A stretch of DNA of 13,805 nt, taken from IMG/VR virus record IMGVR_UViG_2713896779_000020, one strand, 5' to 3'. The DNA is from a virus (taxonomy: Duplodnaviria; Heunggongvirae; Uroviricota; Caudoviricetes). The position numbers and the translations under genes are program-made. Position 1 is the first letter of the stretch. Every line of letters begins with the position of its first letter. Under the pieces are notes generated by a model, which saw nothing but the letters and a program-made list of their open reading frames with translations, had not been told where the DNA came from and did not search any database. Shown piece by piece: positions 1 through 13,805 of this stretch.

Positions 1-2
1 TT

Positions 3-62
3 TGGCGGAAGCGCAGAGATTCGAACTCTGGAACCCTTTCGGGTCGCCGGTTTTCAAGACCG
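3..62 (-). other. Prophage attachment-site core: 3'-terminal 60 nt of tRNA-Ser(UGA) (serT-type); the 5' half of the tRNA is absent, so this is a partial copy, not a functional tRNA gene
   Basis: Reverse complement of 3-62 is CGGTCTTGAAAACCGGCGACCCGAAAGGGTTCCAGAGTTCGAATCTCTGCGCTTCCGCCA: anticodon loop CUUGAAA (anticodon UGA), long variable arm typical of tRNA-Ser, T-arm GGTTCGAATC and CCA end. The bases 5' of it on that strand (revcomp of 63-100) cannot form a D-arm or the acceptor 5' strand. It lies directly beside an integrase gene. Confidence 0.8.
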
Positions 63-203
63 AAGAAAAACAAATAAAAATCAGTGCAATACGTAAAATT
101 GCTGAAAAGTTAATCAAATTTAACACCAAGAAAAATCAAGGTATTAGGAAGTTGCTCATAGCTAGTATACCAAGTCTTTTTGCCAGAAATTTTTCTGGAT
201 TGT

Positions 204-1223
204 CTACTTGCTAACCACGAGCGGCAAATCCAGTGTTGGTGTGATTTTTGTTTTACGATCGTAAATCAACACCTGATTTTCTGTTTTATGCCCGCTGAAA
301 ATTTGTTTGTCGCGACTGCTGCCTTCGTAATCTGAGATCCCCTTGGCTTTTATGTCGTGAAAATTGCACCCGAACGGAACGCCAACTTTTTGCTCGGCTG
401 CGCGTTTAGCCTGATTCCACCAGTTATTCAGCGTTTTAGCTATGACTTTCCCGCCTTTGGTTGTATTGATCACATATTCGCATGTACAGGAAGATACATT
501 TCGGGCTAACTGGATCGCTGTACGTAATCGCGGTGACCATTCCTTGATTTGTTTGGTGCCGGTTTTGTTTTGCTCAATGTAGATCCCTTTATCCATAATA
601 TCCTGCCATTTCAACTCAAGCACATCACCGAGTCTTGCCGCACAGAGATAGGAAATCTCCATTGCAATGCGTAACTGTGGAATTGCTTCCGCATATATCG
701 CCGCATACTGTTCATCGGTGATGTAAACAGTGCGGGCTTTAAGAGAGAATTTTCTGACTCCTTTGCATGGGTTATTCTTCACATACCCACGCTCATATCC
801 CCACCCGTATACTCGACTCAGGCTTGCCAGTTCATGATTTGCCTGGGTCTTGCTCTCAAGCCCTCGTTTATCCATGAAAATTCTTACCTGCTCAGTTTTG
901 ACATTATCAGCAAGCACTTTTCCGAATACCATCAGCAACGCCTTCTGATGTTGTCGATAATCTTTTTGGGTTCGGGGGGCCAGTTCTGTAAATGCAGGGG
1001 AGTCCATAAACATGTGCCACAATTTAGCTACGGTCATTATGTTGTGGAGTTTTGCTTTTTCCAGTTCATAATTTTGCCAGACTTTATCTACGCTGGTTTT
1101 CCGCACTCTTCCTAGCCCTATACTTCTTGTACTTCCTTCGGGTTTCCACACGTAACTGTAACCATTCGATCTAACCCGCGGTGGCAGTACATTATCTTTT
1201 TTATTTTTTCTTGGTCTTCCCAT
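204..1223 (-). CDS. int: Phage integrase, tyrosine site-specific recombinase (339 aa)
   Basis: 339-aa ORF next to the tRNA-derived att core. The N-terminus is basic (MGRPRKNKK) and the C-terminal region has recombinase-like residues (ARLGDVLELKWQD ... FHDIKAKGISD ... VLIYDRK with a candidate catalytic Tyr). Family assignment is from memory and position. Confidence 0.85.
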   Translation of the reverse strand: MGRPRKNKKDNVLPPRVRSNGYSYVWKPEGSTRSIGLGRVRKTSVDKVWQNYELEKAKLHNIMTVAKLWHMFMDSPAFTELAPRTQKDYRQHQKALLMVFGKVLADNVKTEQVRIFMDKRGLESKTQANHELASLSRVYGWGYERGYVKNNPCKGVRKFSLKARTVYITDEQYAAIYAEAIPQLRIAMEISYLCAARLGDVLELKWQDIMDKGIYIEQNKTGTKQIKEWSPRLRTAIQLARNVSSCTCEYVINTTKGGKVIAKTLNNWWNQAKRAAEQKVGVPFGCNFHDIKAKGISDYEGSSRDKQIFSGHKTENQVLIYDRKTKITPTLDLPLVVSK

Positions 1224-1443
1224 TGTTCAGCGCCTCAAAATCGGGTTCAGCAGAAACCAGTTCAGATGTTTTTGGCATCGTTGTCAGACCGTGTGGAATA
1301 TCCCTGCGGAGAACTATGGGTTCGTTTTTAGGGCCGATTACAAATGGGATGCCGTGCAGTCTTAACTGGTGTTGCTGTTTTGTGTATCGCTCGTATTTCG
1401 TGATCTCTTTAATCTCTGCTGGAGATAGAGTTAATTCGTACAT
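1201..1443 (-). CDS. xis: Putative excisionase / small DNA-binding protein (80 aa), overlapping the integrase start
   Basis: Small ORF immediately upstream of int, overlapping it by 23 nt as in int-xis pairs. I chose the internal ATG at 1443 (MYELTLSPAEIKEI...) because the longer form starting at 1581 would overlap the 3' end of the exonuclease gene by about 70 nt. No recognisable motif, so the call is positional. Confidence 0.5.
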   Translation of the reverse strand: MYELTLSPAEIKEITKYERYTKQQHQLRLHGIPFVIGPKNEPIVLRRDIPHGLTTMPKTSELVSAEPDFEALNNGKTKKK

Positions 1444-1510
1444 GTGGTCACGTGCCTTTACAGCATGACCGCCGCCACTATAGCTGGTGGGCGGCGATAT
1501 GGGTTGAACA

Positions 1511-4236
1511 TCAAAAATCAGCCTGACTCGGGAGCAGTTTTTGCCAGATGGCTGAAACGTATTTCGCCTGGTAACGTGCATCGTTCAGAGCGTTATGGCG
1601 TTCACCTTCGAATGGAATAGTCGTTCTTGCGTCGAAATCCATCACCAGTCCCAGAGCAACCATCGTTCTTACATCGCGATCATTGGTGTAACGACATGGG
1701 CAGGGGATCCCCTGCCGTTCATATGAACGGCGTAAAATCACGTTGTCGAAAGTTGCACCGTTACCCCAGACCTGAACAAAAAATTCACCGGAGTTTTCGT
1801 CGATAAATTCCCGTAATTGCAGCAGTGCATCATCTAACGGGATTTCATCGGTAAGAATGGCGGATTGCGCTTCGCGTGACTGTTTCAGCCACCACTTAAT
1901 GGTGTCCCGATCAATGACTCCGCCAGCAGTTTCCAGATCGATAGTTTTGCTGAATTCTGGCCCCATCTCTCCGGTTTGCGGATCGAAAAATATTGCACCT
2001 ATTGAGATAATCGGGGCATCAGGATTTTTTCCCATTGTTTCAAGGTCAATCATCAGATGGTGCCACAACCTGCTGGTGGATGTAATTTCACGATGACCGT
2101 TCACCTTAATTAAGGGATTTGCTGTCTCGCCACTTTCATTATCTGTGGTGTGGTAGTGATCGCCGCCACTGCCTTCCATTTCCTCCTGAGCTTCAGCCTG
2201 ATTTTCTTCATCGAATGTTTCCTGGCAGGTTGCGTCGCCCATCACCGCGCCACAATCAGGGCAGTTGCCGCCACCACTCTGACCGCAGGCGGTACAGACT
2301 TTTTCCTCTTCCTGTTGCGCTACTGGTTCGGATTGTTTCGTTTCTGGCTCGTCTTGTAACGCATTTGGGCTGTTTTGTTCCGCTTTTTGGTCGTTCTGTT
2401 CCGTTTCTGACTGGTTCTGGTTCACAGAATCGCAGGTTTCAATCCCCTTCACCCATTTCGGATCATTCGGGTCGCTAATCCCTTCAACAAATTCACCACG
2501 TGATGCAGCAAGCAATTTATCGGCGTCAGGCTGGCTGATATTGGCTGCCTGCATAATTTTGTTTACTTCGTCAGCGGTAACTTTTACCGGCTCCGGTTGT
2601 ACGGAATCTTCAGCGGTATCCACATTTTGCGGTAAGTCCGTGTATGTTCCGTTTTTGCGGGCAAGATATTCTTCTTTCGTGATTTCAGTAGCCCCGGCAG
2701 CCAGCGCCTTGTCCAGACCAGAAAGTTTGTTTGCGCGACCGTATTTTTCGCCATCCTTGTCGGTGAAGAGGAANNNNNNNNNNNNNNNNNNNNNNNNNNN
2801 NNNNNNNNNNNNNNNNNNNNNNNGCTGATATTGGCTGCCTGCATAATTTTGTTTACTTCGTCAGCGGTAACTTTTACCGGCTCTGATTGTTCGGAATCTT
2901 CAGCGGTATCCACATTTTGCGGTAAGCCCGTGTATGTGCCATTTTTTCGGGCAAAATATTCTTCTTTTGAGATTTCGGTACCGCCGGCAGCCAGCGCCTT
3001 GTCCAGACCAGAAAGTTTGTTTGCCCTGCCGTATTTTTCCCCGCCCTTATCGGTAAAGACGAAATAAAATGGTCCTTCACGCTCTACAGATGGTTCAGCT
3101 TCCACCAGGATTTCATTTTTTTGAGTATCGGATTCTGCCGTCTCCACTGGAGCAGTTTGTGCTGCTGACGGCTGGAGAGCATCAGTAGAGCTCTGGTCTG
3201 TTTCTTCATGTTCAAACACGCCCTTTGTCGTCAGGTATTCACTGATATATTTGTTCAGTGCAACGGGATCTTTGTGAATATCGATCGGACGTTCGCGAAC
3301 AAGGCCAAAAATAGTCTGACGGTCATAGCCAAGTGCTTCGGGCTGTTTGCGCATTGATGCTGAGATACGCTTCCAGTCTTCGCGATCCTTGTCGATAACC
3401 TCATTTGTCGCCCAGCGATGGATGGTACCGTCAATGTTTCCTGCATCCACATCACCGGGCCAGAGGGCGCAGGCCAGTTCATTGTCGAGTGTTTTCCATG
3501 TCTGTTTGTATTCGCGGCGAATGGCAACAGTGACAGCCCCGGTTTTTTCAGCAGCGTTTTCAGTGTTCTGTTGGTTGACTCTGGCGCGGGTGAGATCAAC
3601 AACAGACGTGTATTTTCCGGTTTCCTTGCGTTCACCTTCGCGACGTTTTTTCCAGATGCGCATCTCTGCCTGAATTTCAGGCCATTTAGCGCCAGGCTCA
3701 CATTTATGCTTAACCCACCCGATGGCATGCAGTTTAAGTTCAGGATACATGGCGTTAACTTCTGGCATTTTCATCAACGCTTCAACGATATGTCCGCCGA
3801 ATGTTGCCATGTCTTCCTGTAGTAATTCCTGTGCGCTAATCACCATATCAACGGTGATGTTTTCGCATGTGTCGAATTTAACCAGGACTGCGTTCTGTAC
3901 TTCAGGGGACAGCTTGTCAAAATTGACGTTCATCGGATCGGATTCTGGTTCGACCGGTACAAAGGAAGCTGACTCCTCATCCCAGCGGTTTTCCTGCATA
4001 TATTCGGTATCCCAGGAATCGAGGGCAGGGCGGGGTATGCCGGGTTTATCCTCGCAGACAATAAATTTATAAGCGCAGTCCTGAGCTGCCGGGAATTGCT
4101 CCAGAAATTGCCAGTGAAATTTTGCGCGTGCGCGACGCTCATCACCGGCTTCAATGGCAGTGGCCACCGCAACAGCGCTATCTTCTTTTATGGCCTGTTC
4201 GTCAGGAATAGCAGCGCAAATAAAGATTTTACTCAT
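1511..4236 (-). CDS. Large phage exonuclease (annotated in related prophages as exodeoxyribonuclease VIII-like) with a C-terminal DEDD-type 3'-5' exonuclease domain; interrupted by a 50-N gap and a duplicated 240-bp segment
   Basis: The ORF-track pieces 2584-4236 and 1511-2623 share the peptide [30 protein letters not shown] in the two repeat copies. The C-terminal part shows the three DEDD motifs (MIDLETMG; [13 protein letters not shown]; [10 protein letters not shown]). If the two repeat copies are collapsed, the two pieces join in frame into one ORF of about 812 codons. The reading frame across the N-run cannot be verified. Confidence 0.6.
2534..3063. repeat. Imperfect 240-bp direct repeat (2534-2773 and 2824-3063) flanking the N-run
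   Basis: Both copies start GCTGATATTGGCTGCCTGCATAATTTTGTTTACTTCGTCAGCGG. Constant offset of 290 nt with no indels; by my hand count about 20 mismatches over 240 bp (roughly 90% identity). Confidence 0.9.
2774..2823. other. Run of 50 N (assembly or scaffold gap, or masked bases)
   Basis: Literal n characters in the sequence. Confidence 0.99.
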
Positions 4237-4329
4237 TGTGTTTTAACCTCATTACAGATTTAAGGGTGAACAAATCCCTGCCATTGCTGGCATATAAAAA
4301 TGAAACCGGATATTAATTACGGTGCTGTT

Positions 4330-4521
4330 TTAAAGTCCTGCCGGTATTTCGTTATTATTAGTGTGAGTAGTTTTATCTACCGGATAACAGTTACCGGGAA
4401 TTTTTTGTTCTGCTGCTGCAGCCATGCATTCTTTCATTGAACCGTATAAGCCAGTCACCAGCTCAAGAGATTCGCCGGAAACAAGATAAACTGTCAGAAC
4501 GAGTGCAAATGTTGTATTCAT
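4330..4521 (-). CDS. ydfD: Small membrane protein, YdfD-like (DUF1482-type), 63 aa
   Basis: 63-aa ORF directly downstream of dicB with a hydrophobic N-terminal segment (FALVLTVYLVSG) and a C-terminal KIPGNCYPVDK...EIPAGL. The size and position match ydfD of the Qin dicB locus as I recall it. Confidence 0.6.
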   Translation of the reverse strand: MNTTFALVLTVYLVSGESLELVTGLYGSMKECMAAAAEQKIPGNCYPVDKTTHTNNNEIPAGL

Positions 4522-4706
4522 TGTTTATATCCTTTTTGCAGCAGGTCCAGACGAGCCAGCATTGAAGGAATGCATACTTCATTTAACAGGTCCTGCTCGA
4601 GTTTTCTCTGCTTAATGGCGTCTTCAATAAATGTTTTGTCTCCAGTGATAACGCCAATTTCGAAACGAAGTTCAGACGTGCTGGCATTACATGATAACTT
4701 TTCCAT
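4518..4706 (-). CDS. dicB: Cell-division inhibitor DicB homologue (62 aa)
   Basis: The internal-ATG product MEKLSCNASTSELRFEIGVITGDKTFIEDAIKQRKLEQDLLNEVCIPSMLARLDLLQKGYKQ is the same length as E. coli K-12 DicB and shares its blocks (FEIGV, TEDAI..RK, SMLARL) as recalled. GAGGA ribosome-binding site 5' of the ATG. The longer track ORF (to 4814) would run into the dicF region. Confidence 0.8.
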   Translation of the reverse strand: MEKLSCNASTSELRFEIGVITGDKTFIEDAIKQRKLEQDLLNEVCIPSMLARLDLLQKGYKQ

Positions 4707-4885
4707 TATCGCGTCCTCAACAATGAATTTTGTGATGCGGTGCCTGGTGCCTTCAGGTGACGTTAACCAGTTAACAATTAACGCCGGATACAGAGCATTC
4801 TCGTTACTCAGCAAATGACCGCTTTACCGATTTAACTGTTCCGCGTGCGCTGAGCCGCATTCACCGCATCACAAAATTCACTTTT

Positions 4886-4944
4886 AAAAAAGGGCGGCAG
4901 AGCAGTCACGGAGTAAAACTGATACCGCCAAATGTCACCAGAAT
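4886..4944 (-). ncRNA. dicF: DicF small RNA homologue with intrinsic terminator tail
   Basis: The minus strand reads ATTCTGGTGACATTTGGCGGTATCAGTTTTACTCCGTGACTGCTCTGCCGCCC followed by TTTTTT. This differs at only two positions from the 53-nt K-12 DicF sequence as I remember it, and it lies directly upstream of dicB as in Qin. Confidence 0.85.
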
Positions 4945-5279
4945 ATTGATAACAGAGGGCGTTGCAGCGGGGTTGTCACTTAAGCGTATGGTCAACCTGA
5001 CAACCCGGTGTCCTCAACGGGGAAAGAATAACCCCGCCATACTTACCGCCGCGCCATTTCGCGGATTGCCACAACCGGAAGCGCACGGTCGAATTAAATT
5101 TAACGACGGCTCTAAGGGAGAAGGACTTCGCCGTGCACTTTCGTGTTATGCCCTGACTTTTCAGGGATATATCCTTTCAGTAAACTGTCAGTGCCGGATT
5201 CTTATCTGTGTCCGGCGCACGACCACACGTAGCAGCGTGTTGGTCTCCATTTTTAATTCAGCCCTTAATGGAGGATAAA

Positions 5280-5465
5280 ATGCCAAACAAACCATGCCCT
5301 GCCTGTAACGCTCTTTCTGGCTTTTTAGAGAAGGGCGGTTATTACATTTTTAACTGTCCAGAACATGTTGAATTTCATATATCAAAACTTGACAGTATCA
5401 TTACAAAGCCAAATCAGTATCAGTCTGATTTACTGAATAAAGAGTTAAACGCCGCCCGAGATTAA
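5280..5465 (+). CDS. Small zinc-ribbon protein, Lar/RalR-like (restriction-alleviation family), 61 aa
   Basis: GGAGG ribosome-binding site 6 nt before the ATG at 5280. Product MPNKPCPACNALSGFLEKGGYYIFNCPEHVEF... has a C-x2-C ... GYY ... C-x2-H pattern resembling the KPCPFCG...GYY...C-x2-C arrangement of Rac RalR/Lar as recalled. It is on the opposite strand to the surrounding operon. Confidence 0.5.
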   Translation: MPNKPCPACNALSGFLEKGGYYIFNCPEHVEFHISKLDSIITKPNQYQSDLLNKELNAARD

Positions 5466-5502
5466 GGGCGTAGTGGCCCATTAAAAATATTGCAAAGACC
5501 AA

Positions 5503-6041
5503 CTATTGTTGAACTGGATTAAACCAGTAATTCTCTATTGCTCTTATTGTTACCATCGGATGATTGCCGGGGGTTATTTTAAGTTCGGGAGGAAAAGGCT
5601 CTCCATCAGCAGCCATCATTGAGTATGTGAAATCCGCCGACGCAGTCCCTTTCATGATAATTCCGAATTTTTCAAGTAATGAGAGCAGTTCCGGTAATCC
5701 TGTGTCATCTGAATAACTTTCCTCATAGAAAGAAGCGATTGCCGCAGGAGATGACAGTTCTCGCTCTGCAATTTTTTTGTAGTTTTCCAGAATTCTTTTT
5801 TTGAATACTTTTCCTCGACATGAAAACCCATCACCGAGGCAATCCGCTTTGCAGTTTCTTCAGTATTCTGGTTGTTTGTTACCGAAACAGAGTACAATCC
5901 GGTAAACGCATCGCGCACATTACGAGCCATATTATCAATGTATTTCTTCGTTGCAGATTCTAATTCAACTTCGTTCAGACGTTGGTGAAGTGCATGTGCT
6001 GCAATTTCCTGGATTTCTTTTAGTAAATCTTTAAATTCCAT
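5503..6041 (-). pseudogene. Hypothetical protein gene with a -1 frame change: the N-terminal frame (track ORF 5652-6041, 129 aa) continues in the -1 frame to a stop at 5503-5505; either a frameshift, a homopolymer sequencing error or programmed slippage
   Basis: GGAG ribosome-binding site before the ATG at 6041. After the A7 run (plus-strand T7 at 5796-5802) the annotated frame turns into low-quality sequence (LQSENCHLLRQSLLSMRKV...), while the -1 frame reads a protein-like 95 aa with no start codon (...KKRILENYKKIAERELSSPAAIASFYEESYSDDTGLPELLSLLEKFGII...NPVQQ*). Total span is 539 nt, consistent with one frame change. Confidence 0.5.
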
Positions 6042-6052
6042 CTTTAACTCCG

Positions 6053-6181
6053 TTAGTCGTTAGATTTTGCCGAACTGGAAAGCGCCTGTTTAAACTCACT
6101 GAAGCTGAGAGCTTCCTCGCCTTCGGCAAGGCCTTCGAAGTATTCTTCGTAAGCCTTTTCCATGATTGTGTCGAAATCCAT
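6053..6181 (-). CDS. ydfB: Small acidic protein, YdfB-like (42 aa)
   Basis: ORF below the 60-aa track threshold, found by hand: MDFDTIMEKAYEEYFEGLAEGEEALSFSEFKQALSSSAKSND. AGGTGA ribosome-binding site; the start is 1 nt after the ydfA-like stop. Size and position match ydfB of Qin as recalled. Confidence 0.5.
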   Translation of the reverse strand: MDFDTIMEKAYEEYFEGLAEGEEALSFSEFKQALSSSAKSND

Positions 6182-6182
6182 A

Positions 6183-6338
6183 TCACTCACCTGAGTTTCT
6201 TTCCAGCCAGCGACGGGCACCATTTTCGGTTTTAAACGTTTTGCTTTTGGTATACGTCATCGCGGTGAATGTACCGTCCTGGTTGGGAAACACGCCGTAC
6301 ACCAGAGATTCGTTGTTGCCAAGATCGATAGTATCCAT
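6183..6338 (-). CDS. ydfA: Small protein, YdfA-like (DUF1391-type), 51 aa
   Basis: Internal ATG at 6338 with a GAGG ribosome-binding site gives MDTIDLGNNESLVYGVFPNQDGTFTAMTYTKSKTFKTENGARRWLERNSGE. It is the first gene after the leftward promoter; size and position match ydfA of Qin as recalled. Confidence 0.5.
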   Translation of the reverse strand: MDTIDLGNNESLVYGVFPNQDGTFTAMTYTKSKTFKTENGARRWLERNSGE

Positions 6339-6519
6339 GTTGACCTCATTTCCCCTTAACGCCGGGTAGCGGAACAAAAACCTGCTGCATAGTTATTAAA
6401 GTTGAACCCTGCCGTCATGTTCATACGCCTCGGGCTGGCTACTTACCCCCTGACCACTGCCTGGTAACTCGAAGTATTGCCCGGCGTTCTGTGGGGCGGG
6501 GTGGGTGGTTGGTGTATGT

Positions 6520-6562
6520 AATCTACAATTAAAAACTGTTTTGTGTCAACAGTTTTTAATTG
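6520..6562 (-). promoter_or_regulatory. Leftward early promoter (PL-like) with overlapping palindromic operator for the ydfA-ydfB-dicF-dicB operon
   Basis: Minus strand: -35 TTGACA (6549-6544), 18-bp spacer, -10 TAGATT (6525-6520). It is embedded in a perfect palindrome CAATTAAAAACTGTT-N7-AACAGTTTTTAATTG (6526-6562). Confidence 0.55.
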
Positions 6563-6573
6563 TTGTTTTGGGC

Positions 6574-6595
6574 AAAAAAATCCCTCGAAAGAGGG
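6574..6595 (-). terminator. Intrinsic terminator ending the repressor-antitoxin-toxin operon
   Basis: The minus strand reads CCCTC-TTTC-GAGGG followed by A-TTTTTTT, located 20-40 nt downstream of the parE-type stop. Confidence 0.5.
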
Positions 6596-6614
6596 AGTAT
6601 GAAAATTGTTCAAC

Positions 6615-6902
6615 TCAGATAGAGAAGGGAAATTGTCGCCGAGAATGTGTCACGCTTACAATCTCAATGCTTGAAGCAGCTACTCTGTACAGGATTATGT
6701 AGTTAGGGTGGGTCACGATCTCTCTCAATCCAGAAACCCGTTCGCTTGGTGGATATAAGTACGGATGCTCAGATAGAGGTAATACCGATGTTTCAATGCG
6801 TATTTTTAGTCTACGTGCTGCCGGTGGGTTCTCCTTGGCGATGTAAGTTATGATCTGGCGCAAATCATCGCGAGCAGACGGTAGCCATAAAATGGGTAAC
6901 AT
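6615..6902 (-). CDS. parE: Type II toxin, RelE/ParE family (ParE2-like), 95 aa
   Basis: MLPILWLPSARDDLRQIITYIAKENPPAARRLKIRIETSVLPLSEHPYLYPPSERVSGLREIVTHPNYIILYRV... fits the ParE pattern as recalled. The start overlaps the antitoxin stop (TAATG). Confidence 0.7.
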   Translation of the reverse strand: MLPILWLPSARDDLRQIITYIAKENPPAARRLKIRIETSVLPLSEHPYLYPPSERVSGLREIVTHPNYIILYRVAASSIEIVSVTHSRRQFPFSI

Positions 6903-7093
6903 TACTCGCTCTTGTTAGTTACAGCAATTTGAGCAATAAGATTTTCCATTTCAGCCATTACCTCGTCATGTGGAATTGCGGGGCGAGTGTCTGCAAGGCT
7001 TGACGTTACTTTAGTGCGCAACCATTCGTTGTAACTGTTTTCTTGTTCGGTAGTTTCGAATTCTGAAACTATCGGAGAAAGGGCTGTACCCAT
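6902..7093 (-). CDS. paaA2: Antitoxin, PaaA2-like (ParE-associated antitoxin), 63 aa
   Basis: MGTALSPIVSEFETTEQENSYNEWLRTKVTSSLADTRPAIPHDEV... closely matches the PaaA2 sequence of E. coli O157 as I recall it (ALSPMVSEFETIEQENSYNEWLRAKV..SLAD.RPAIPHDEV). GAGGAG ribosome-binding site; immediately upstream of the toxin. Confidence 0.65.
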   Translation of the reverse strand: MGTALSPIVSEFETTEQENSYNEWLRTKVTSSLADTRPAIPHDEVMAEMENLIAQIAVTNKSE

Positions 7094-7120
7094 GGCATAA
7101 CTCCTCTTCTTGTACTGTGG

Positions 7121-7522
7121 TCACGCCCGGCGGCTTTTTTGTGCCGCCAGCCACCTAGCAATGGTTTCTTCCATTGATTTTTTCTTGTCTTTGATTTCTT
7201 GAAGCATTTTTTCTTGGTCTTCCTCAGGAAACGCACTAAAAGCTTGGAGCAGTTCGCGTTGGCGAGGACCAATTTTCATCGTGTCAGGGGTGAAAATTTG
7301 CTCACACTCTTCAGGAGGCAATAAAAACCAATGCAATGGATGCCCTGAAACCTCAACCAGTTTATCCAAACTTGAGGCTTTAGGTGTAGCCTTACCGCTG
7401 ACCCATTGTTGAACAGTTTGTTGTGTCACACCAATTCTACGGGCAAGCTCAGCCTGGCTCCATCCAGTTTCCTGAAGAAGCTTGCTGATTCTGTACATAG
7501 ATACTTCTAGGGCGCTCATCAT
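7121..7522 (-). CDS. HTH_XRE transcriptional regulator, DicA/PaaR2-like; candidate prophage repressor
   Basis: Helix-turn-helix SQAELARRIGVTQQTVQQWVSGK near the N-terminus. First gene of the operon with the antitoxin and toxin, and divergent from the cro-like gene. The start is ambiguous: 7522 (MMSALEV...) or the internal ATG at 7498 (MYRISKLLQETGW...), the latter giving a more typical HTH N-terminus. Confidence 0.7.
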   Translation of the reverse strand: MMSALEVSMYRISKLLQETGWSQAELARRIGVTQQTVQQWVSGKATPKASSLDKLVEVSGHPLHWFLLPPEECEQIFTPDTMKIGPRQRELLQAFSAFPEEDQEKMLQEIKDKKKSMEETIARWLAAQKSRRA

Positions 7523-7563
7523 TATTCAATTTTACAGGTAAATACTGTTAAAAGCACCACAAT

Positions 7564-7602
7564 AAAAAACTGTTGATTGCATACAGTTTTTTATTGTAGG
7601 CT
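7564..7602 (+). promoter_or_regulatory. Rightward early promoter (PR-like) with overlapping operator, paralogous to the leftward unit
   Basis: AAAAAACTGT-N9-ACAGTTTTTT inverted repeat (7564-7592); -35 TTGATT (7573-7578), 18-bp spacer, -10 TAGGCT (7597-7602). An extra half-site ACTGTT lies at 7544-7549. GGAGG ribosome-binding site at 7621-7625 before the cro-like ATG. Confidence 0.5.
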
Positions 7603-7630
7603 TTGCTTATAGTTTTTAGAGGAGGGCAAA

Positions 7631-7903
7631 ATGCTAGATAGCACTCGCGAAAAAATTAGGCAGAAATACACTCAGGCTGAAATAGGTCGTTATATGGGGG
7701 TCGCTCAACAGACTGTTTGGCAATGGTTTAGCTTTGGCGTTCCCCCAAAGCAGGTAATTCCGTTATGCCAACTAATGAAGTGGGAAGTTACCCCGCATGA
7801 AATCCGCCCAGATATTTATCCTAACCCAACCGACGGTTTACCTGTTGGATGTAAGGTTAACACATCAAATGCGCCGGAGTTGATTCATGAAAATCAAGCA
7901 TGA
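7631..7903 (+). CDS. Cro/YdaS-like small HTH protein (90 aa)
   Basis: Divergent from the repressor. Helix-turn-helix GRYMGVAQQTVWQW. Strong ribosome-binding site. Confidence 0.7.
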   Translation: MLDSTREKIRQKYTQAEIGRYMGVAQQTVWQWFSFGVPPKQVIPLCQLMKWEVTPHEIRPDIYPNPTDGLPVGCKVNTSNAPELIHENQA

Positions 7904-8312
7904 ACACATCCGCATGGCGATGAATGCCTGGGCGCATCCGGACGGCGAAAAAGTACCGGCTGCGAAAATTACCAAAGCGTATTTCGAGCTGGGAATGACG
8001 TTCCCGGAACTGTATGACGACAGCCATCCGGAAGCCATGGCTCGCAATACTCAGAAAATTTTCCGCTGGGTGGAGAAAGACACTCCTGATGCGGTTAAAA
8101 AAATTCAGGCGTTGTTACCAGCGATCGAAAAAGCGATGCCGCCTCCGCTGGTGGCCCGAATGCGCAGCCACAGTTCCGCTTATTTTCGGGAGTTGGTAGA
8201 GACGAAGGAACGGCTGGTGAAAGATATTGATGATTTCGTTGCATCAGCGATCGTTCTGTTCGATCAGATGAATCGTGGTGGCCCGGCAGGAAACACTCTG
8301 GCTGTGCATTAA
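7887..8312 (+). CDS. ydaT: YdaT-like protein (141 aa)
   Basis: The N-terminus MKIKHEHI matches my recollection of Rac YdaT, and it has the same position after the cro-like gene. Its start overlaps the cro-like stop by 17 nt. Confidence 0.5.
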   Translation: MKIKHEHIRMAMNAWAHPDGEKVPAAKITKAYFELGMTFPELYDDSHPEAMARNTQKIFRWVEKDTPDAVKKIQALLPAIEKAMPPPLVARMRSHSSAYFRELVETKERLVKDIDDFVASAIVLFDQMNRGGPAGNTLAVH

Positions 8313-8325
8313 TTGGGTAATAAAT

Positions 8326-8835
8326 ATGAGTAATGACAAAAAATTGACACTGAGCGTTTACGAAAACAGTCCGCACATCTGGCGTGGCGGTTTATCTGAT
8401 GTGGAGCTGGCAGAGTGGTTGATACATAAAGCTAATGCGCTGCTCTGGCGTTTGTCAGCCAGAGAACAGCGCAAGGAAACCAGAATAAAGCTGGCTGATG
8501 CAGAAGCGTGTGCCGGGCTTATTGAGGATTATACAAATCTTGGTATTTCTTCAGCAGAGAGTGATCCCATTCAGCCTCTGAGCAGGGAGTCAATCCAGCA
8601 CGCTGGTTGTATGGCACATCTTGTAACTGCTCGTCAACATGAGGTGGGTATTGGATCACTTCCGGTGGGATATTCGCTGATTCCAGAGCTGGTTGAAGCA
8701 AGAAAATCAGTTCAGAAAAAGAGAGATGACGCACTTCAATTATTGAGAGAGCACTATGGCGCGATACCAGAATGCGAACAGCATCGATACCCTGAAGGTT
8801 ATGAATGGATGCAGTCTCTTTTTGAAGTTCGCTAA
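8326..8835 (+). CDS. Hypothetical protein (169 aa from the internal ATG)
   Basis: I chose ATG 8326 (MSNDKKLTLSVYENSPHIWRGG...) rather than the track start at 8275, which overlaps ydaT-like. No motif recognised. Confidence 0.5.
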   Translation: MSNDKKLTLSVYENSPHIWRGGLSDVELAEWLIHKANALLWRLSAREQRKETRIKLADAEACAGLIEDYTNLGISSAESDPIQPLSRESIQHAGCMAHLVTARQHEVGIGSLPVGYSLIPELVEARKSVQKKRDDALQLLREHYGAIPECEQHRYPEGYEWMQSLFEVR

Positions 8836-8941
8836 TCAATATGTCGAGACGAAGGTATGTTTCGGCGCGCAGCCAGGCTCTGTAATCCGGGAGCATTTCG
8901 GGGCTGTTACACCAGCGGTTTGTTGCTGCAACATTTAATAC

Positions 8942-10226
8942 ATGAGCCTGATAAAGGCTTTTCAAAAAATACATGTCGAACCTCCTCTGGTTCTGTCGAT
9001 TGGGAACCACAGATTATATCCGGAGGAAGGTTCGGCACCAGATGAGGTAGCCATGCGTGATTACGCAAAAGTTTCTCCGCGATTCTGGCTGGGAGAAACG
9101 GGGAGAGAACTTAGAAAGGCGGGTGCAGAAGCGCAAGTTGTTGCTTTTTACCTGATGACATCCCCTCACGCAAATATGCTGGGTTTGTATTACCTGCCAG
9201 TTTTATACCTTGCTCATGAAACCGGGCTTGGTCTGGAAGGGGCTTCAAAGGGGCTTAAAAGGGCTGTTGAAGCTGGTTTTTGTAGCTATGACCATGATGC
9301 AGAGATGGTCTGGGTCCATGAAATGGCAGCCTGGCAGGTTGGGGAAACGTTGAAGCCTGGCGATAACCGTTGTGCAGGTGTCAGGAATGAGTATGCATCA
9401 TTACCTGAAAACGCTTTTCTGTCAGTGTTTTACGACAGATATAAAACGGATTTCCATCTGGATGTGAGGCGGAATAATAGCCGAAATTCGGTAAGGGGCT
9501 TCGAAGGGGCTTTTAAGGGGCTTCGAAGCCAAGAACAGGAACAGGAGCAGGAGAAAGAACAGGAACAGGACAAAAACACTATGGTTCATGGCAAAAAAAA
9601 CACCACGAACCAGGCAGGGGATGTTCAGACCGTCAATCCTGGTCAGCCAGCAGGCACGACACCGNNNNNNNNNNNNNNNNNNNNNNNNNNNNNNNNNNNN
9701 NNNNNNNNNNNNNNAAGCCGATTCAGCGTATGCGCTGAAAGCCGATTCGGGCGCTGTGCAGCAGGTGATGACCGCAGGGTCGGAGCAATCACACCAACTG
9801 CAGCAGCCTGAAGCCGATTCCGCCATTCAGCGGGAAGCCGATCGGGTAGTCCCGGAAAGCACCGGGCAGTCTGTGGGACGAGTGGATTATCCGGATGTGT
9901 TCGAACAGGTCTGGCGGGAATACCCGTTGCGTGCTGGGGCAAACCCGAAGAAATCCGCTTTCAGTGCCTGGAAGGCCAGATTGCGCGAGGGGGTGCCACC
10001 AGAGACCATGCTGGATGGTGTGAGGCGTTACGCGAGATACCTGGCGGCGACCGGGAAAGCGGGAACGGAATTTGTTCAGCGAGCGACGACGTTTTTTGGG
10101 CCGGACCGGAATTTTGAAAACCCCTGGTTGCTCCCGGTAAGCGGCACGAACAACCAGCGTTGTGTGAATCATATTTCTGAACCGGATACCGAAATTCCGC
10201 CGGGATTCAGGGGTGATGTGGCATGA
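8942..10226 (+). CDS. Replication-initiation (O-like / YdaU-type) protein with a low-complexity linker; interrupted by a 50-N run
   Basis: Track ORFs 8942-9811 and 9588-10226 are each protein-like only on their own side of the gap (N-terminal part before it, C-terminal part ...DYPDVFEQVWREYPLRAGANPKKSAFSAWKARL... after it). The stop overlaps the start of the DnaC-like gene (ATGA). Single-gene status across the gap is an inference. Confidence 0.5.
9237..9523 (+). repeat. Two clusters of three phased direct repeats AAGGGGCTT (11-bp period) inside the replication gene; candidate iterons
   Basis: Cluster 1 copies start at 9237, 9248 and 9259 (the third is degenerate). Cluster 2 copies start at 9493, 9504 and 9515. 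Confidence 0.6.
9665..9714. other. Run of 50 N (assembly or scaffold gap, or masked bases) inside the replication gene
   Basis: Literal n characters. The flanks are repeat-rich: (GAACAG)n at 9531-9572 and AAGCCGATTC-type repeats at 9715-9844. Confidence 0.99.
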
Positions 10227-10963
10227 AAAACATTGCGGCAGCCGGGGTTCTTGAACGTATTCGCAGACTTGCACCACAGGCGTCGGTTCCACCGTACCGG
10301 ACGGTGGAGGAGTGGCGGGAATGGCAACTTGCTGAAGGACGAAAACGCAGCGAGGAGATTAACCGCCAGAATCACCAGTTGCGGGTGGAAAAAATCCTGA
10401 ATCGTTCGGGCATCCAGCCTCTGCACAGCAAATGCTCGTTTGCGAATTATCAGGTGCAGAACGACGGGCAAAAATACGCGCTGAGCCAGGCCAAATCCAT
10501 AGCTGACGAACTGATGACCGGGTGCACGAATTTTGTGTTCAGCGGTAAAACCGGCACCGGGAAAAATCACCTTGCAGCGGCGATGGGTAACCGGCTGATG
10601 GCGAAGGGGCGCAGCGTGATTATCGTCACCGTGTCTGATGTCATGAGCGTGTTGCATGACAGCTACGACAACGGCAAATCCGGGGAAAAATTTTTACAGG
10701 AGCTTTGCAGTGTTGATTTGCTGGTCCTGGATGAAATAGGCGTTCAGCGGGAGACGAAAAACGAGCAGGTGGTATTACACCAGATAATTGATCGCCGGAC
10801 AGCATCACTGTGCAGTGTCGGGATGTTAACAAACCTGAATCATGCCGCAATGAGTACACTTCTTGGTGAGAGGATTATGGACCGCATGACCATGAACGGT
10901 GGTCGATGGGTGACGTTTAACTGGGATAGCTGGCGGTCAAACGTTGGACGTCAGGGTATGTGA
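10223..10963 (+). CDS. DnaC-like helicase loader / IstB-type AAA+ ATPase (246 aa)
   Basis: Walker A FSGKTGTGKNHLA and Walker B LLVLDEIG. Start overlaps the stop of the preceding replication gene, typical of O-P-like pairs. Confidence 0.85.
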   Translation: MKNIAAAGVLERIRRLAPQASVPPYRTVEEWREWQLAEGRKRSEEINRQNHQLRVEKILNRSGIQPLHSKCSFANYQVQNDGQKYALSQAKSIADELMTGCTNFVFSGKTGTGKNHLAAAMGNRLMAKGRSVIIVTVSDVMSVLHDSYDNGKSGEKFLQELCSVDLLVLDEIGVQRETKNEQVVLHQIIDRRTASLCSVGMLTNLNHAAMSTLLGERIMDRMTMNGGRWVTFNWDSWRSNVGRQGM

Positions 10964-10988
10964 GAATTTTTGACGAGGTAAATTTTCG

Positions 10989-11759
10989 ATGGAAACTGTA
11001 TTGCATGCACTGAAAGCGATGGGAAAAGCCAATTCTGTTGAACTGGCGGCGCGGCTTGATATCAGCCGTGAAGAAGTTCTTAACGAACTGTGGGAACTCA
11101 AAAAAAATGGCGTTGTTGATAAAACGGGTCACACCTGGTTTCTGGCTGGCGAAGGTGAATCCCGGGTAACCGAAGAGCGGCCAGTAAAATCTGAAGCACA
11201 GGATATGCTGACCGGGGAGGTCGAACAAAAAGTTACCGCAGACATGATGATTGAGTTTATCGGTCAGGATGGGGCTAAAACGTGTGAGGAACTGGCGGGT
11301 AAGTTCGGTGTCAGTACTCGCAAGGTTGCTTCCACGCTGGCGGTGGTAACCGCAACGGGGCGGCTGGCACGCGTTAATCAGAACGGTAAATTTCGTTACT
11401 GCATGCCGGGCGATAATTTACCAGCAGAGCCGAAAGCCGCGCTGGTAACGGAAAGTGATGGTAAGGCCTTTCCTCAGCCAGCAGGTGCTGCGTTACCAGT
11501 CCGGGAAGCCGCAACACAGGAAGAAATTAAAACAGAAACTGTGGCGGACATTGTGCAGCCGTTGCCATCGTTTACCGAAACGCAAGCAGATGAGCTGATT
11601 TTTCCGTCCCTTCGCAGGGCAAACCTGGCGCTGCGCAGGGCGAAAAGTGATGTTCAGAAGTGGGAGCGAGTCTGCGCCGCGCTGCGGGAGCTGAACAAGC
11701 ACCGGGATATTGTTCGACAGATTACTGATTCTTCCCGCCGTGTTGTATCGGAAAAGTGA
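10989..11759 (+). CDS. Hypothetical protein with an N-terminal winged-helix-like region (256 aa)
   Basis: Full-length ORF with even coding composition. N-terminus [27 protein letters not shown] resembles a winged helix. Function unknown. Confidence 0.6.
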
Positions 11760-11774
11760 TTGCCGGAGGCGCTT

Positions 11775-12188
11775 ATGGCAAAAGTATTTACACAGGAAGA
11801 GCGGGAAAAAATTAAAGGGCAGGTTGTTGAGCTAGTACGCCGGAGTGGGCGCGAGACGTTACGGCAACTGGAAGCCAAGACAGGTGCGACAAGATATCTG
11901 ATGAGCGTTCTTGCCAGAGAGCTGGTTGCCAGTGGCGATGTATACAACTCTGGTTACGGGTTATTCCCATCTGAACAGGCTCGTAAGGACTGGCAAAACG
12001 CCCGCAAAAAACTATCGAGGGCAAAACTGAAGAAACCGGTTGTGGTTGATCCTGACCTTATCTGGTCATTACCAGACGGAGAAATACGCCGCTATGACAG
12101 GCAATTGAACATAATTTGTAGTGAGTGCCGTAACAGTGAAGTGATGCAGCGAGTTTTGATATTTTACACAGGAGTAATGATGGAATAG
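11775..12188 (+). CDS. Hypothetical protein (137 aa)
   Basis: GGAGG ribosome-binding site 5 nt before ATG 11775 (MAKVFTQEEREK...); the track start at 11760 lacks a ribosome-binding site. Function unknown. Confidence 0.55.
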   Translation: MAKVFTQEEREKIKGQVVELVRRSGRETLRQLEAKTGATRYLMSVLARELVASGDVYNSGYGLFPSEQARKDWQNARKKLSRAKLKKPVVVDPDLIWSLPDGEIRRYDRQLNIICSECRNSEVMQRVLIFYTGVMME

Positions 12189-12539
12189 TGAAAATAACAT
12201 GAAACCTTTGGATTCTGGTGTTTCAGTGGATGGGAAAAGAGCAGATACATAGAAAATGAATAGCAATAATTCACAGTCTGGATGTTGTTTGTATGCTTAT
12301 AAAATGATCCTAGTATGCATTGCCGGAGTTGAATCAGCTCCAATGAAGAAACTGAGAGGAGTATTTAGAAGATAGCTAAATGGATGTAATTATTAGTATC
12401 TAAAAAATAGTATTTTTGAAATGGGTCTAAGAACACAACAATGTACAAATGAGAAGTTATCTTTTAATATGTTCAAAGACCCATTAGGATTGATATCAGT
12501 TATGTTAGCTAGATTGATAAAGTGATTACATATTTTCTG

Positions 12540-13313
12540 TTATATGCTGAAATGAATAATGCTATTCCAGAGTGCAGCAGAGAAAGTCTCCTGATGATTG
12601 AGCTCTGGAAATTGTACAATAGAAAAATTACTGTATTTTTCTGTCAAAATATTTCTCAAAACAGATTCCGCTTTGATGGCTTCAGGATATAAAGATGCGG
12701 AGTAATCAAGGCTAAGATTTCCGTTAAGCAAGCATATACTTTTAGTGTGCTTTGATTCTGATATATCATCTTTAATTATCTTGATGATTCTTTCATTCTG
12801 CCATAGAAGTGATGGTGCAGATATATAATAATAGTTAAAGCATGAATTATTTTTTAAGCAATCAAGCACAAAAATAGCACCTAGCGAGTGCCCACATATA
12901 CCGATTCTGGAACTGTTCGGAGCAATAGTACTAACCCATGGCATGATCTGAGTTAGTAATAATTCTCGGAAAGACTGGCTTCCTCCACCAGTAAAGTAGA
13001 TCCATGCTGGTTTAGAGTTATCAACAATAGCATTTTCACCATCAGGAGTATAATCGTAAGCACGGCGATGAATGCTAAGGTTATTCCAAGATTCATAACC
13101 AAGTGTAACTAACACTGGTGGATTGGGTAGTGCATCAATAACAGGCAGAATATCAGAAATGTAATTGTTGGCACTATTCCCATCAAGTATATAAAGAGTT
13201 GCATTATTTTTTTTAATGTTTTTTGGAGTAAAAATACATATTTTATATTTGGTGTCATGGTTAATTGAGTTAAATATGCGTGTTTGACAATGAATGTCCA
13301 TATGTTTAGTCAT
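12540..13313 (-). CDS. Alpha/beta-hydrolase-fold esterase-family protein (257 aa) in an AT-rich island
   Basis: Serine-hydrolase nucleophile elbow GHSLGA (GxSxG) with upstream LDGNS and GGGSQSF blocks resembling the putative-esterase family (Fes/IroE/esterase D type). GGAGA-like ribosome-binding site. The gene and its flanks look markedly more AT-rich than the rest of the window (by eye, not computed). Confidence 0.7.
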   Translation of the reverse strand: MTKHMDIHCQTRIFNSINHDTKYKICIFTPKNIKKNNATLYILDGNSANNYISDILPVIDALPNPPVLVTLGYESWNNLSIHRRAYDYTPDGENAIVDNSKPAWIYFTGGGSQSFRELLLTQIMPWVSTIAPNSSRIGICGHSLGAIFVLDCLKNNSCFNYYYISAPSLLWQNERIIKIIKDDISESKHTKSICLLNGNLSLDYSASLYPEAIKAESVLRNILTEKYSNFSIVQFPELNHQETFSAALWNSIIHFSI

Positions 13314-13805
13314 GCGTTCTCCCCATGAGCATTAAAGGATGCTTAAGATATGCTATGTCACTGATAAAAAATTTGTTGTGTGTGTTTAGTTATTTTATCT
13401 ACCTCCATTATGATTTAAGACTGATATATGTTATCAGCAAAGGTACATCGTTATTATTTTACCTGTCAATACATTTGATATTGATTATCGTTTACATCGC
13501 TTGCTTAGGAAATTGAAGGCAGGTAACTATCATGTCAATGAACTAACCCACAGTCTAACGTACTTCTTTCCCCAATCACCAACAACCAAATTCCTGTTAT
13601 CACCACTGGGATTTTGGCGCAACTTCATGGTGCAGAGGTAAATAGCATCAAGCAAAATCTCTTTTTCCGTTGTTGTCCTTATGGGACGTCTGTCTTTCTG
13701 ACCGATTTCATATTGGCGAGGTAATGGGAAGTTAAGTAGAATAGCTGCGGGTGCTTGAGGCTATCTGCCTCGGGCATGAACACCAACGGCAGATAGAGAA
13801 AAGCC

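Follow-up and report, generated by a model that had tools for sequence, protein, structure and literature searches.

The DNA analysed here, a stretch of 13,805 nucleotides from the IMG/VR virus record IMGVR_UViG_2713896779_000020 which is referred to as a whole as the window, is Sp4-type lambdoid prophage DNA of Shiga-toxin-producing Escherichia coli (STEC), and near its right end it carries a replaceable cassette, low in guanine plus cytosine (GC) content, whose only long open reading frame (ORF) encodes a serine hydrolase of 257 amino acids. Homology and fold place this hydrolase in the IroE-like siderophore-esterase family; it retains the putative catalytic residues of that family, has no leader, and is under purifying selection. 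The explanation that we favour, and in which we place somewhat more trust than doubt, is that the gene is a moron in an exchangeable prophage cassette, whose product would be a leaderless cytoplasmic esterase of catecholate siderophores, may be controlled by Fur, and could benefit the host. A sequence-only reading of the window had described an island with an opposite-strand hydrolase at 12189-13805 and had interpreted it as horizontally acquired, moron-like cargo. The observation is confirmed and the interpretation is supported as essentially right, with corrections to the extent of the island and of its upstream non-coding DNA which are given below.

The GC content falls from 0.472 in bases 1-12188 (0.502 in the replication module, 7631-12188) to 0.343 in bases 12189-13693, a deviation with a binomial z of about -10 which bears out the claim of an abrupt change in base composition after position 12188. 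The comparison of GC content with the flanks, which the sequence-only reading had set beforehand as a check on itself, thus gives a sharp difference and leaves the moron interpretation unrefuted. In a sliding profile the replication module lies at 0.47-0.58 and the region from about 12200 to about 13600 at 0.31-0.38, while no 1500-base stretch outside the island goes below 0.425 (mean 0.472, standard deviation 0.027). Segment by segment, the GC content is 0.313 in 12189-12539, 0.368 in 13314-13712 and 0.516 in 13713-13805; the coding sequence of the hydrolase has 0.344, and 0.279 at third codon positions, for which five other genes of the window have 0.46-0.61.

The boundaries of the island were mapped by blastn comparison of window positions 11700-13805 with 24 related loci drawn from E. 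coli, E. albertii, E. ruysiae, Shigella and metagenome bins. In prophages with other cargo, homology to the window ends at 12151-12183, inside the last 40 nt of the DUF977 gene, and restarts at 13671-13741, just 5' of hok/sok. Because homology breaks off and resumes in this way around the low-GC DNA, the island is a replaceable cassette of 1.5 kb, which occupies 12155-13693 between the DUF977 gene and hok/sok, and has edges that are fuzzy over the two ranges just given; the GC change points obtained by maximum likelihood, at about 12103 and about 13547, are consistent with these break points. No terminal direct or inverted repeats were found flanking the island, so that transposon-like insertion was rejected and recombination in the conserved flanks is the likelier route of exchange. 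Bases 13694-13805 are conserved flank which is common to prophages with other cargo. The interval 12189-13805 therefore holds as a low-GC island only to about 13693, its rightmost 110-135 bases belonging to the conserved hok/sok flank, and for the same reason the non-coding DNA upstream of the hydrolase gene, which had been put at about 490 bp, amounts to about 360-400 bp. Within the island, a 63-codon ORF at 13325-13516 and a 39-codon ORF at 12256-12375, both on the plus strand, were treated as spurious because their frames are lost or gain stops in a second allele of the cassette. Rfam matches to CRISPR-DR57 (expectation value, E, 0.14) and SCARNA8 (E 0.35) fall far under the gathering scores and were taken as chance.

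The cassette is present in 470 of 5426 complete E. coli genomes (8.7%), at 479 places, and the DUF1627/DUF977 module that adjoins it in 4566 genomes, at 9343 places. With this difference in distribution, and with other cargo between the same flanks, the gene lies outside the conserved core of the phage family; the foreign composition, the replaceable cassette and the alternative occupants of the same slot together uphold the reading of the gene as moron-like, horizontally acquired cargo. Copies in 457 of the 470 genomes are at least 99% identical to that of the window, and the remaining 13 are a second allele at 80-90%. The carriers listed belong mostly to the major Shiga-toxin serogroups O157:H7, O26, O103, O121 and O145, in which the gene is annotated as 'hypothetical protein' or 'alpha/beta hydrolase', and the cassette is found behind two types of replication module, DnaC-like and DnaT/P-like.

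The hydrolase gene (ECs1077, WP_000160651.1) occupies 12540-13313 on the minus strand, starts with ATG and faces the replication genes, and its product contains a GHSLG nucleophile elbow, in agreement with the description of a single serine hydrolase encoded opposite the replication module. In phmmer searches of the Protein Data Bank (PDB), residues 8-253 match IroE (2gzr) with an E of 2.8e-24, and there are further matches to BES (2e-12), PfeE (8e-10), the fungal EstA (3e-8) and an 'IroE-like serine hydrolase'. A HMMER search of 1.84 billion representative sequences returned 998 proteins at an E of 0.001 or better, among which identities of at least 76% belong only to fragments from E. coli; beyond E. 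coli, full-length matches are 27-33% identical, with up to about 40% over partial stretches, and a profile search recovers relatives named IroE or alpha/beta hydrolase in Klebsiella, Salmonella, Pantoea, Erwinia, Pseudomonas and others. In an alignment of 45 sequences the invariant columns are S16, Y23, P30, D44, G45, N46, R84, D87, G110, F115, G141, H142, S143, G145 and H240. These include a putative catalytic set, S143 (in GHSLG), H240, D44 (in LDGN) and R84 (in RAYDYTP), which aligns with residues of IroE that we take to have the corresponding catalytic roles, the counterparts of Asp44 and Arg84 presumably serving, as reported for IroE, in substrate binding or transition-state stabilisation.

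The predicted structure leads to the same family. The AlphaFold2 model of the hydrolase has a predicted local distance difference test score (pLDDT) of 88 and a predicted template-modelling score (pTM) of 0.90, and when it was compared with the PDB by Foldseek, the 30 best-ranked matches were without exception siderophore esterases or IroE-like proteins (E 3e-18 to 9e-15; template-modelling (TM) scores of 0.72-0.81, and query TM scores, TMq, of 0.71-0.79), with Fes and generic esterases ranking lower, at an E of 1e-10 or weaker. The assignment as a serine hydrolase thus stands, and the substrate, which the sequence-only reading had left as unknown, is narrowed by phmmer, alignment and Foldseek to that of an IroE-like siderophore-esterase family. 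Phage collections contribute little: no relative above 30% identity was found in 50,697 phage records, the structures of viral proteins in BFVD contain no close counterpart (the best, generic hydrolases, reach a TMq of 0.56), and the only match in PHROGs is phrog_8493, whose function is unknown. Searches of Pfam at default thresholds and of NCBIfam gave no match.

The hydrolase differs from its relatives most visibly at the N-terminus. The absence of an obvious signal peptide, noted in the sequence-only reading, is corroborated by the lack of any hydrophobic N-terminal stretch: at most 6 of 15 residues are hydrophobic, compared with 10-14 in 41 of 42 relatives. These relatives have a median of 51 residues ahead of the point at which the hydrolase starts, which is the first beta-strand, and the six closest relatives examined open with a hydrophobic leader and then the conserved segment PLGxNIADxGSxY, both of which are missing from the hydrolase. 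An in-frame TAA, read from the sequence 18 nt upstream of the ATG, means that no N-terminal extension is possible; an extension or a decayed leader was accordingly rejected, there being also no tblastn match with the leaders of the six relatives.

Variation among alleles shows how the gene has been maintained. Between the window allele and that of strain 14EC001 (allele 2) the nucleotide difference is 9.4%, the proteins are 90% identical, and the synonymous (dS) and non-synonymous (dN) divergences are 0.31 and 0.054, a dN/dS ratio of 0.17; allele 2 keeps the motifs, the ribosome-binding site and the start codon. A single place spanning at least 80% of the cassette is found in 466 of the 470 carrier genomes. 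The insertion sequence IS1203/IS629 lies within the gene, at window position 12733-12737, in O26:H11 strain 11368 (locus L002, 6641-7948) and a few other genomes, the exact O26 junction being common to 4 genomes, and a third allele (locus L026, 4880-5630; 83% protein identity), which follows a replication module of the DnaT/P type, carries a frameshift after roughly 40 codons. The gene is therefore under purifying selection, as the low dN/dS and the retained motifs and ribosome-binding site indicate, yet dispensable, as the insertions and the frameshifted allele indicate.

The non-coding DNA upstream of the gene is shared with allele 2 only over 13314-13566, in which a core at 13401-13500 is 91% identical between the alleles; most of the 3' spacer is 74-78% identical. 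A Shine-Dalgarno-like element, GGGGAGAA, read from the sequence at 13317-13324 on the minus strand, lies 3 nt before the ATG and is identical in allele 2. A consensus scan predicts a sigma-70 promoter at 13407-13434 on the minus strand, ATAACA-16-CATAAT (9 of 12 consensus positions), both hexamers of which are identical in allele 2; the region contains 9 promoter-like sites compared with 7.7 in shuffled sequences, which is not above expectation. Over the predicted -35 element of this promoter lies a candidate operator, the perfect 17-bp palindrome CTGATAACATATATCAG (13421-13437, minus strand), found by a sequence scan and identical in allele 2. It has one exact copy in the window, where 0.01 matches with at most 3 mismatches are expected by chance, its only other match there, with 3 mismatches, is at 3242-3258, and the exact palindrome was not found in allele 3. 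Control of the gene by the prophage repressor through this palindrome was rejected, since the cI/cro intergenic region contains no exact or near copy. An alternative promoter candidate can be read from the sequence at 13440-13469 on the minus strand, where a perfect TTGACA (13469-13464) is separated by an 18-nt spacer from TACCTT (13445-13440); the consensus scan does not list it because its -10 element is weak, and the context of the TTGACA, AATGTATTGACA, is conserved in all three alleles.

A relaxed scan places a Fur-box-like 19-mer, GTAAACGATAATCAATATC, at 13477-13495 on the minus strand, ending 7 nt upstream of this TTGACA. It agrees with GATAATGATAATCATTATC at 15 of 19 positions, no other site in the 13.8 kb of the window reaches a score of 14, and a score of 15 is attained by 0.2% of shuffles of the intergenic region; when the score was calibrated on the ent cluster of strain K-12, three known Fur-controlled intergenic regions scored 13, 16 and 15, and six that are not Fur-controlled scored 9-12. 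The position of such a site by a conserved -35 element suggests that the hydrolase gene may be repressed by iron. Downstream of the gene, at 12400-12487 on the minus strand and 55-140 nt after the stop codon, lies a terminator-like long hairpin (inverted repeat I3, arms 12470-12485 and 12420-12435, 88% complementary) followed by a U-rich run. Its predicted RNA fold has an energy of -26.7 kcal/mol (z -2.7), and the segment is 87% identical between the alleles, which sets it apart from the less similar remainder of the 3' spacer. The conserved upstream core and the hairpin are suggestive of a promoter and terminator belonging to the cassette itself, and from these predicted signals and the non-recurring palindrome we infer that the hydrolase could be expressed independently of phage development, as the sequence-only reading had supposed, and in the lysogen.

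According to the explanation that we favour, Escherichia lambdoid prophages of the Sp4, Rac and Qin-like types would carry, in a slot whose position between the DUF977 gene and hok/sok does not vary, one of many alternative cassettes, which are swapped when their conserved flanks recombine. The cassette of the window would be a moron, a single gene which is read in the opposite direction to the early operon and is equipped with a conserved upstream region and a hairpin terminator of its own, and its product would belong, as a cytoplasmic serine esterase, to the siderophore-esterase family of IroE, PfeE and BesA. Ser143, at the GHSLG elbow and activated by His240, would attack the serine-ester bond of a catecholate trilactone siderophore, for which the likeliest candidate is enterobactin, E. 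coli's own siderophore, or related molecules based on dihydroxybenzoylserine, and Asp44 and Arg84 would aid substrate binding or stabilisation of the transition state. Because the periplasmic leader of the family is missing, the reaction would take place in the cytoplasm, beside Fes, and its outcome would be either the freeing of iron from imported ferric siderophore or the linearisation of the apo-siderophore.

Several observations weigh against this explanation. The Pfam model PF00756, 'Esterase', gives only 15.2 bits against a gathering score of 22 (E 0.018) and covers only residues 81-161, a shortfall which we attribute to the limited sensitivity of the model for a very divergent member, since homology is established by phmmer, profile search and Foldseek. 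Of the 66 alignment columns with conservation of 90% or more among relatives, the hydrolase keeps 37, and the other 29 are changed or lost, so that its substrate may have drifted; it is moreover a long-branch outgroup, with a mean identity of 27% to IroE-like proteins that share 46% mutually. The missing leader and segment, the lost columns and the outgroup position are the reasons for which we do not call the protein IroE: judged from its sequence, it is a leaderless, deeply divergent IroE-like esterase. The Fur-box-like site is one consensus match, which scores 14 of 19 in alleles 2 and 3 and is thus weaker there than in the window allele, and which lies upstream of the candidate -35 element rather than over it, and a strict scan found no Fur consensus match within 3 mismatches. 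STEC already possess Fes, and the benefit of a second cytoplasmic esterase is not obvious. No paper found in a literature search mentions ECs1077, NP_309104 or WP_000160651, and several anti-phage systems occupy the slot in other prophages, a sign that selection has worked on another basis.

Substrate drift would lead to the alternative that the protein, though active as a serine esterase, has ceased to act on siderophores and owes its IroE-like fold to ancestry alone; examples of what it might cleave instead are other esters of the acyl-serine or depsipeptide kind, lipid or acetyl esters, and toxins conjugated to a siderophore. This would account for identities of at most about 33% to anything outside E. 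coli among the 1.84 billion representatives, for the long branch and the score below the Pfam threshold, and for the 20 substitutions at near-invariant positions and the loss of the PLGxNIADxGSxY segment. We nevertheless think it unlikely, as all family-invariant residues are kept, including an aspartate and an arginine that are specific to the family rather than found in alpha/beta hydrolases generally, and as the fold is far closer to those of siderophore esterases (E 1e-18 to 1e-15) than to those of other esterases (1e-10 or weaker).

A further alternative arises from the company that the cassette keeps, for the DUF977-hok/sok slot acts like a hotspot for defence genes and other cargo in lambdoid prophages. 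The most frequent of the occupants that were counted is queH, with a DUF977-QueH junction in 880 genomes. In locus L011 queH is followed by the KwaA and KwaB genes of the Kiwa system (7482-9121; PADLOC E 1e-101 and 3e-159), in a cassette present in 156 genomes; a protein with a RelA/SpoT domain (locus L008, 6942-7967) matches PDC-S33, a family of candidate defence proteins (E 5e-119), and a KilA-N protein that resembles BstA (locus L022, 6495-7268; E 3e-21) is encoded on the minus strand. The slot of strain UTI89 holds a gene pair of which one member has a weak match, below the Pfam gathering score, to a HEPN/RES N-terminal domain, that of locus L016 holds HNH and DUF551 genes, and that of locus L025 a protein of 340 amino acids without family assignment. 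Most of the alternative cassettes, the defence ones included, have a GC content of 0.30-0.39; the queH and HNH/DUF551 occupants have 0.45-0.49. The literature search, the coverage of which was incomplete, found no description of this slot. Locus L011 is a contig binned as 'Veillonella' but Escherichia-like, in which the equivalent of the junction at window 13694-13777 is present twice, at 7287-7369 after queH and at 9347-9416 after Kiwa, an arrangement that looks like cassettes stacked at a repeated recombination junction.

The esterase might therefore be an anti-phage or inter-phage competition factor that guards the lysogen from superinfection, acting through a siderophore or iron route or on a phage-related ester. 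The presence in the same slot of Kiwa, the PDC-S33 candidate and the BstA-like protein, the last likewise on the minus strand, would agree with this, as would the low GC content (0.30-0.39) that the cassette has in common with the defence cassettes, the HEPN/RES match being weak. However, no defence family in PADLOC-DB matches the hydrolase, even at an E of 10, the commonest counted occupant, queH, is not a defence gene, the literature search found nothing that ties siderophore esterases to phage defence, and the ancestral activity is the simplest explanation for a siderophore-esterase catalytic set that has stayed intact, so that we regard such a role as improbable. The more specific proposal, in which the slot is a defence hotspot and the esterase a new single-gene anti-phage or anti-competitor factor that works through the chemistry of siderophores or iron, for instance by breaking down enterobactin within the infected cell, or a molecule linked to a siderophore, appears to us similarly improbable; were it true, the siderophore-esterase fold would gain its first role in immunity or competition. 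Least credible is that the gene is a functionless passenger, an AT-rich and probably silenced remnant (H-NS silences AT-rich foreign DNA in E. coli) hitch-hiking with a successful STEC prophage, which would fit the near-identity of 457 of the 470 copies, as expected of recent clonal spread rather than long maintenance, and the interrupted and frameshifted copies, but not a dN/dS of 0.17 at a dS of 0.31, the conservation across alleles of the catalytic residues, ribosome-binding site, upstream core and terminator hairpin, or an ORF without large interruption in nearly all carriers.

The contributions of the present analysis are the identification of the enzyme family, the delimitation of the cassette, and the recognition of the slot as a cargo hotspot that also receives defence systems; they do not overturn current ideas, and amount to an upgrade of annotation with a modest chance of something new. 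If the hydrolase is an active, iron-regulated cytoplasmic esterase of the enterobactin type, STEC have, on a prophage, a second means of processing catecholate siderophores, which could bear on fitness at low iron and on survival of oxidative stress in the gut, the latter because linear products of enterobactin are protective: the linear enterobactin trimer protects Salmonella against peroxide (PMC7403778). The slot itself is a well-delimited exchange site, at which Kiwa, a RelA/SpoT-type candidate and a BstA-like protein have already been encountered, and it could be mined for new cargo.

The two flanks of the cassette and the rest of the window are those of the host prophage. On the left, the DUF977 gene (11775-12188, plus strand; Pfam PF06163, E 4e-27; start as given by RefSeq in locus L001) is the final gene of the replication-side operon, and its last 35-85 nt, to judge from the change point at about 12103 and the homology break at 12151-12183, are already within the exchanged, AT-richer segment. 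On the right, outside the cassette, the leader of a hok/sok type I toxin-antitoxin system (13713-13805, plus strand) was recognised by Rfam and a promoter scan: a promoter-like site TTGGCG-18-TAGAAT at 13713-13742 is followed by a 5' stem-loop, and a match to RF01794, 'sok', at 13749-13805 (48.9 bits, with a gathering score of 59; E 1.9e-9) is cut by the end of the window. The hokD coding sequence begins about 113 nt past this end in identical genomes and is annotated at 16819-16974 in L001. Bases 12100-13805 are 100% identical to E. coli O121 strain RM8352 and 99.9% identical to many O157:H7, O26, O145 and O103 genomes; in O157:H7 Sakai the region is annotated as 'prophage Sp4, lambda-like phage' and the hydrolase gene, ECs1077 (ECs_1077), as 'hypothetical protein'. 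The related prophage of RM8352 (L001), of which the part from int to the start of hok/sok is the equivalent of the window, has the order int, xis-like gene, exonuclease, dicB, ydfABC-like genes, relBE, repressor, cro-like gene, YdaT, ECs1072 family, replication initiator, DnaC-like ATPase, DUF1627, DUF977, hydrolase (on the opposite strand), hokD, DUF968, rusA and Q.

Several other features of this prophage were observed. According to the annotation of L001, a relE/relB-like type II toxin-antitoxin pair (window 6615-7093, minus strand) adjoins the repressor gene (7121-7522), so that this pair and hok/sok are two addiction-type modules flanking the early region. A run of 50 N at 9665-9714 stands where RM8352, otherwise identical in sequence, has one base; it divides the replication-initiator gene into apparent ORFs at 8942-9811 and 9588-10226, and is a masking or assembly artefact rather than a frameshift. 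The exonuclease gene (1511-4236, minus strand), which encodes 824 amino acids in RM8352 and Sakai, is here represented by two overlapping ORFs, 1511-2623 and 2584-4236; within it, identity to RM8352 drops to 87% over 2186-2773, with gaps, and the gene may be a mosaic or frameshifted variant. Beyond the window, at 28627-28651 of L001, there is a stronger Fur-box-like site, GAAAATGATAATAATTATC (17 of 19), between a gene of the YlcI/YnfO family and the gene for the small terminase subunit.

Among known systems, PfeE, the ferric-enterobactin esterase of Pseudomonas aeruginosa (PDB 6GI0-6GI5), is the top Foldseek match of the hydrolase (E 3e-18, TM 0.79), and both it and the BES/BesA-type esterases (PDB 2QM0) are significant sequence matches and single-domain proteins of similar size; they differ in being only about 20-22% identical, with sequence matches that cover the N-terminal two thirds only, and in being encoded in chromosomal siderophore-uptake loci, not in phage. 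Fes, the ferric-enterobactin esterase of E. coli (PDB 3C87, 3C8D and 3C8H), shares with the hydrolase the cytoplasmic location predicted for the latter and the likely class of substrate, and its catalytic domain has a related structure (Foldseek E about 1e-10, TMq 0.66-0.68), but it has an extra N-terminal domain (about 380-400 amino acids, compared with 257), is more distant from the hydrolase than are IroE and PfeE, and is encoded in the Fur-regulated ent/fep cluster. IroE, the salmochelin and enterobactin trilactone hydrolase of the iroBCDEN cluster (PDB 2GZR and 2GZS), is the best sequence match among solved structures, and has the same fold (TM 0.77-0.81) and the same conserved LDGN aspartate, RxYDYTP arginine, GHSxG serine and C-terminal histidine. 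The hydrolase is nevertheless only about 27-30% identical to IroE and an outgroup to the whole sampled IroE-like clade, is unlinked to iroB, iroC, iroD and iroN, having instead the prophage neighbours DUF1627, DUF977 and hokD, and, being without a leader or anchor, is predicted to be cytoplasmic, whereas IroE is periplasmic (PMC7403778). Both IroE and Fes hydrolyse enterobactin and salmochelin, the periplasmic IroE linearising iron-free siderophores and the cytoplasmic Fes preferring ferric forms (PMC7403778). As a cargo site, the slot resembles the defence hotspots of the temperate phages P2 and P4 (PMC9122126) in being a fixed position with conserved bounding genes which receives many low-GC cassettes, defence systems included, and the hydrolase cassette, with its own predicted transcription signals and its orientation opposite to the phage operon, resembles the cargo of such hotspots and morons in general; it differs from them in that the slot lies between DUF977 and hok/sok of lambdoid prophages and in that the cargo is an enzyme of metabolic type rather than a recognised defence gene.

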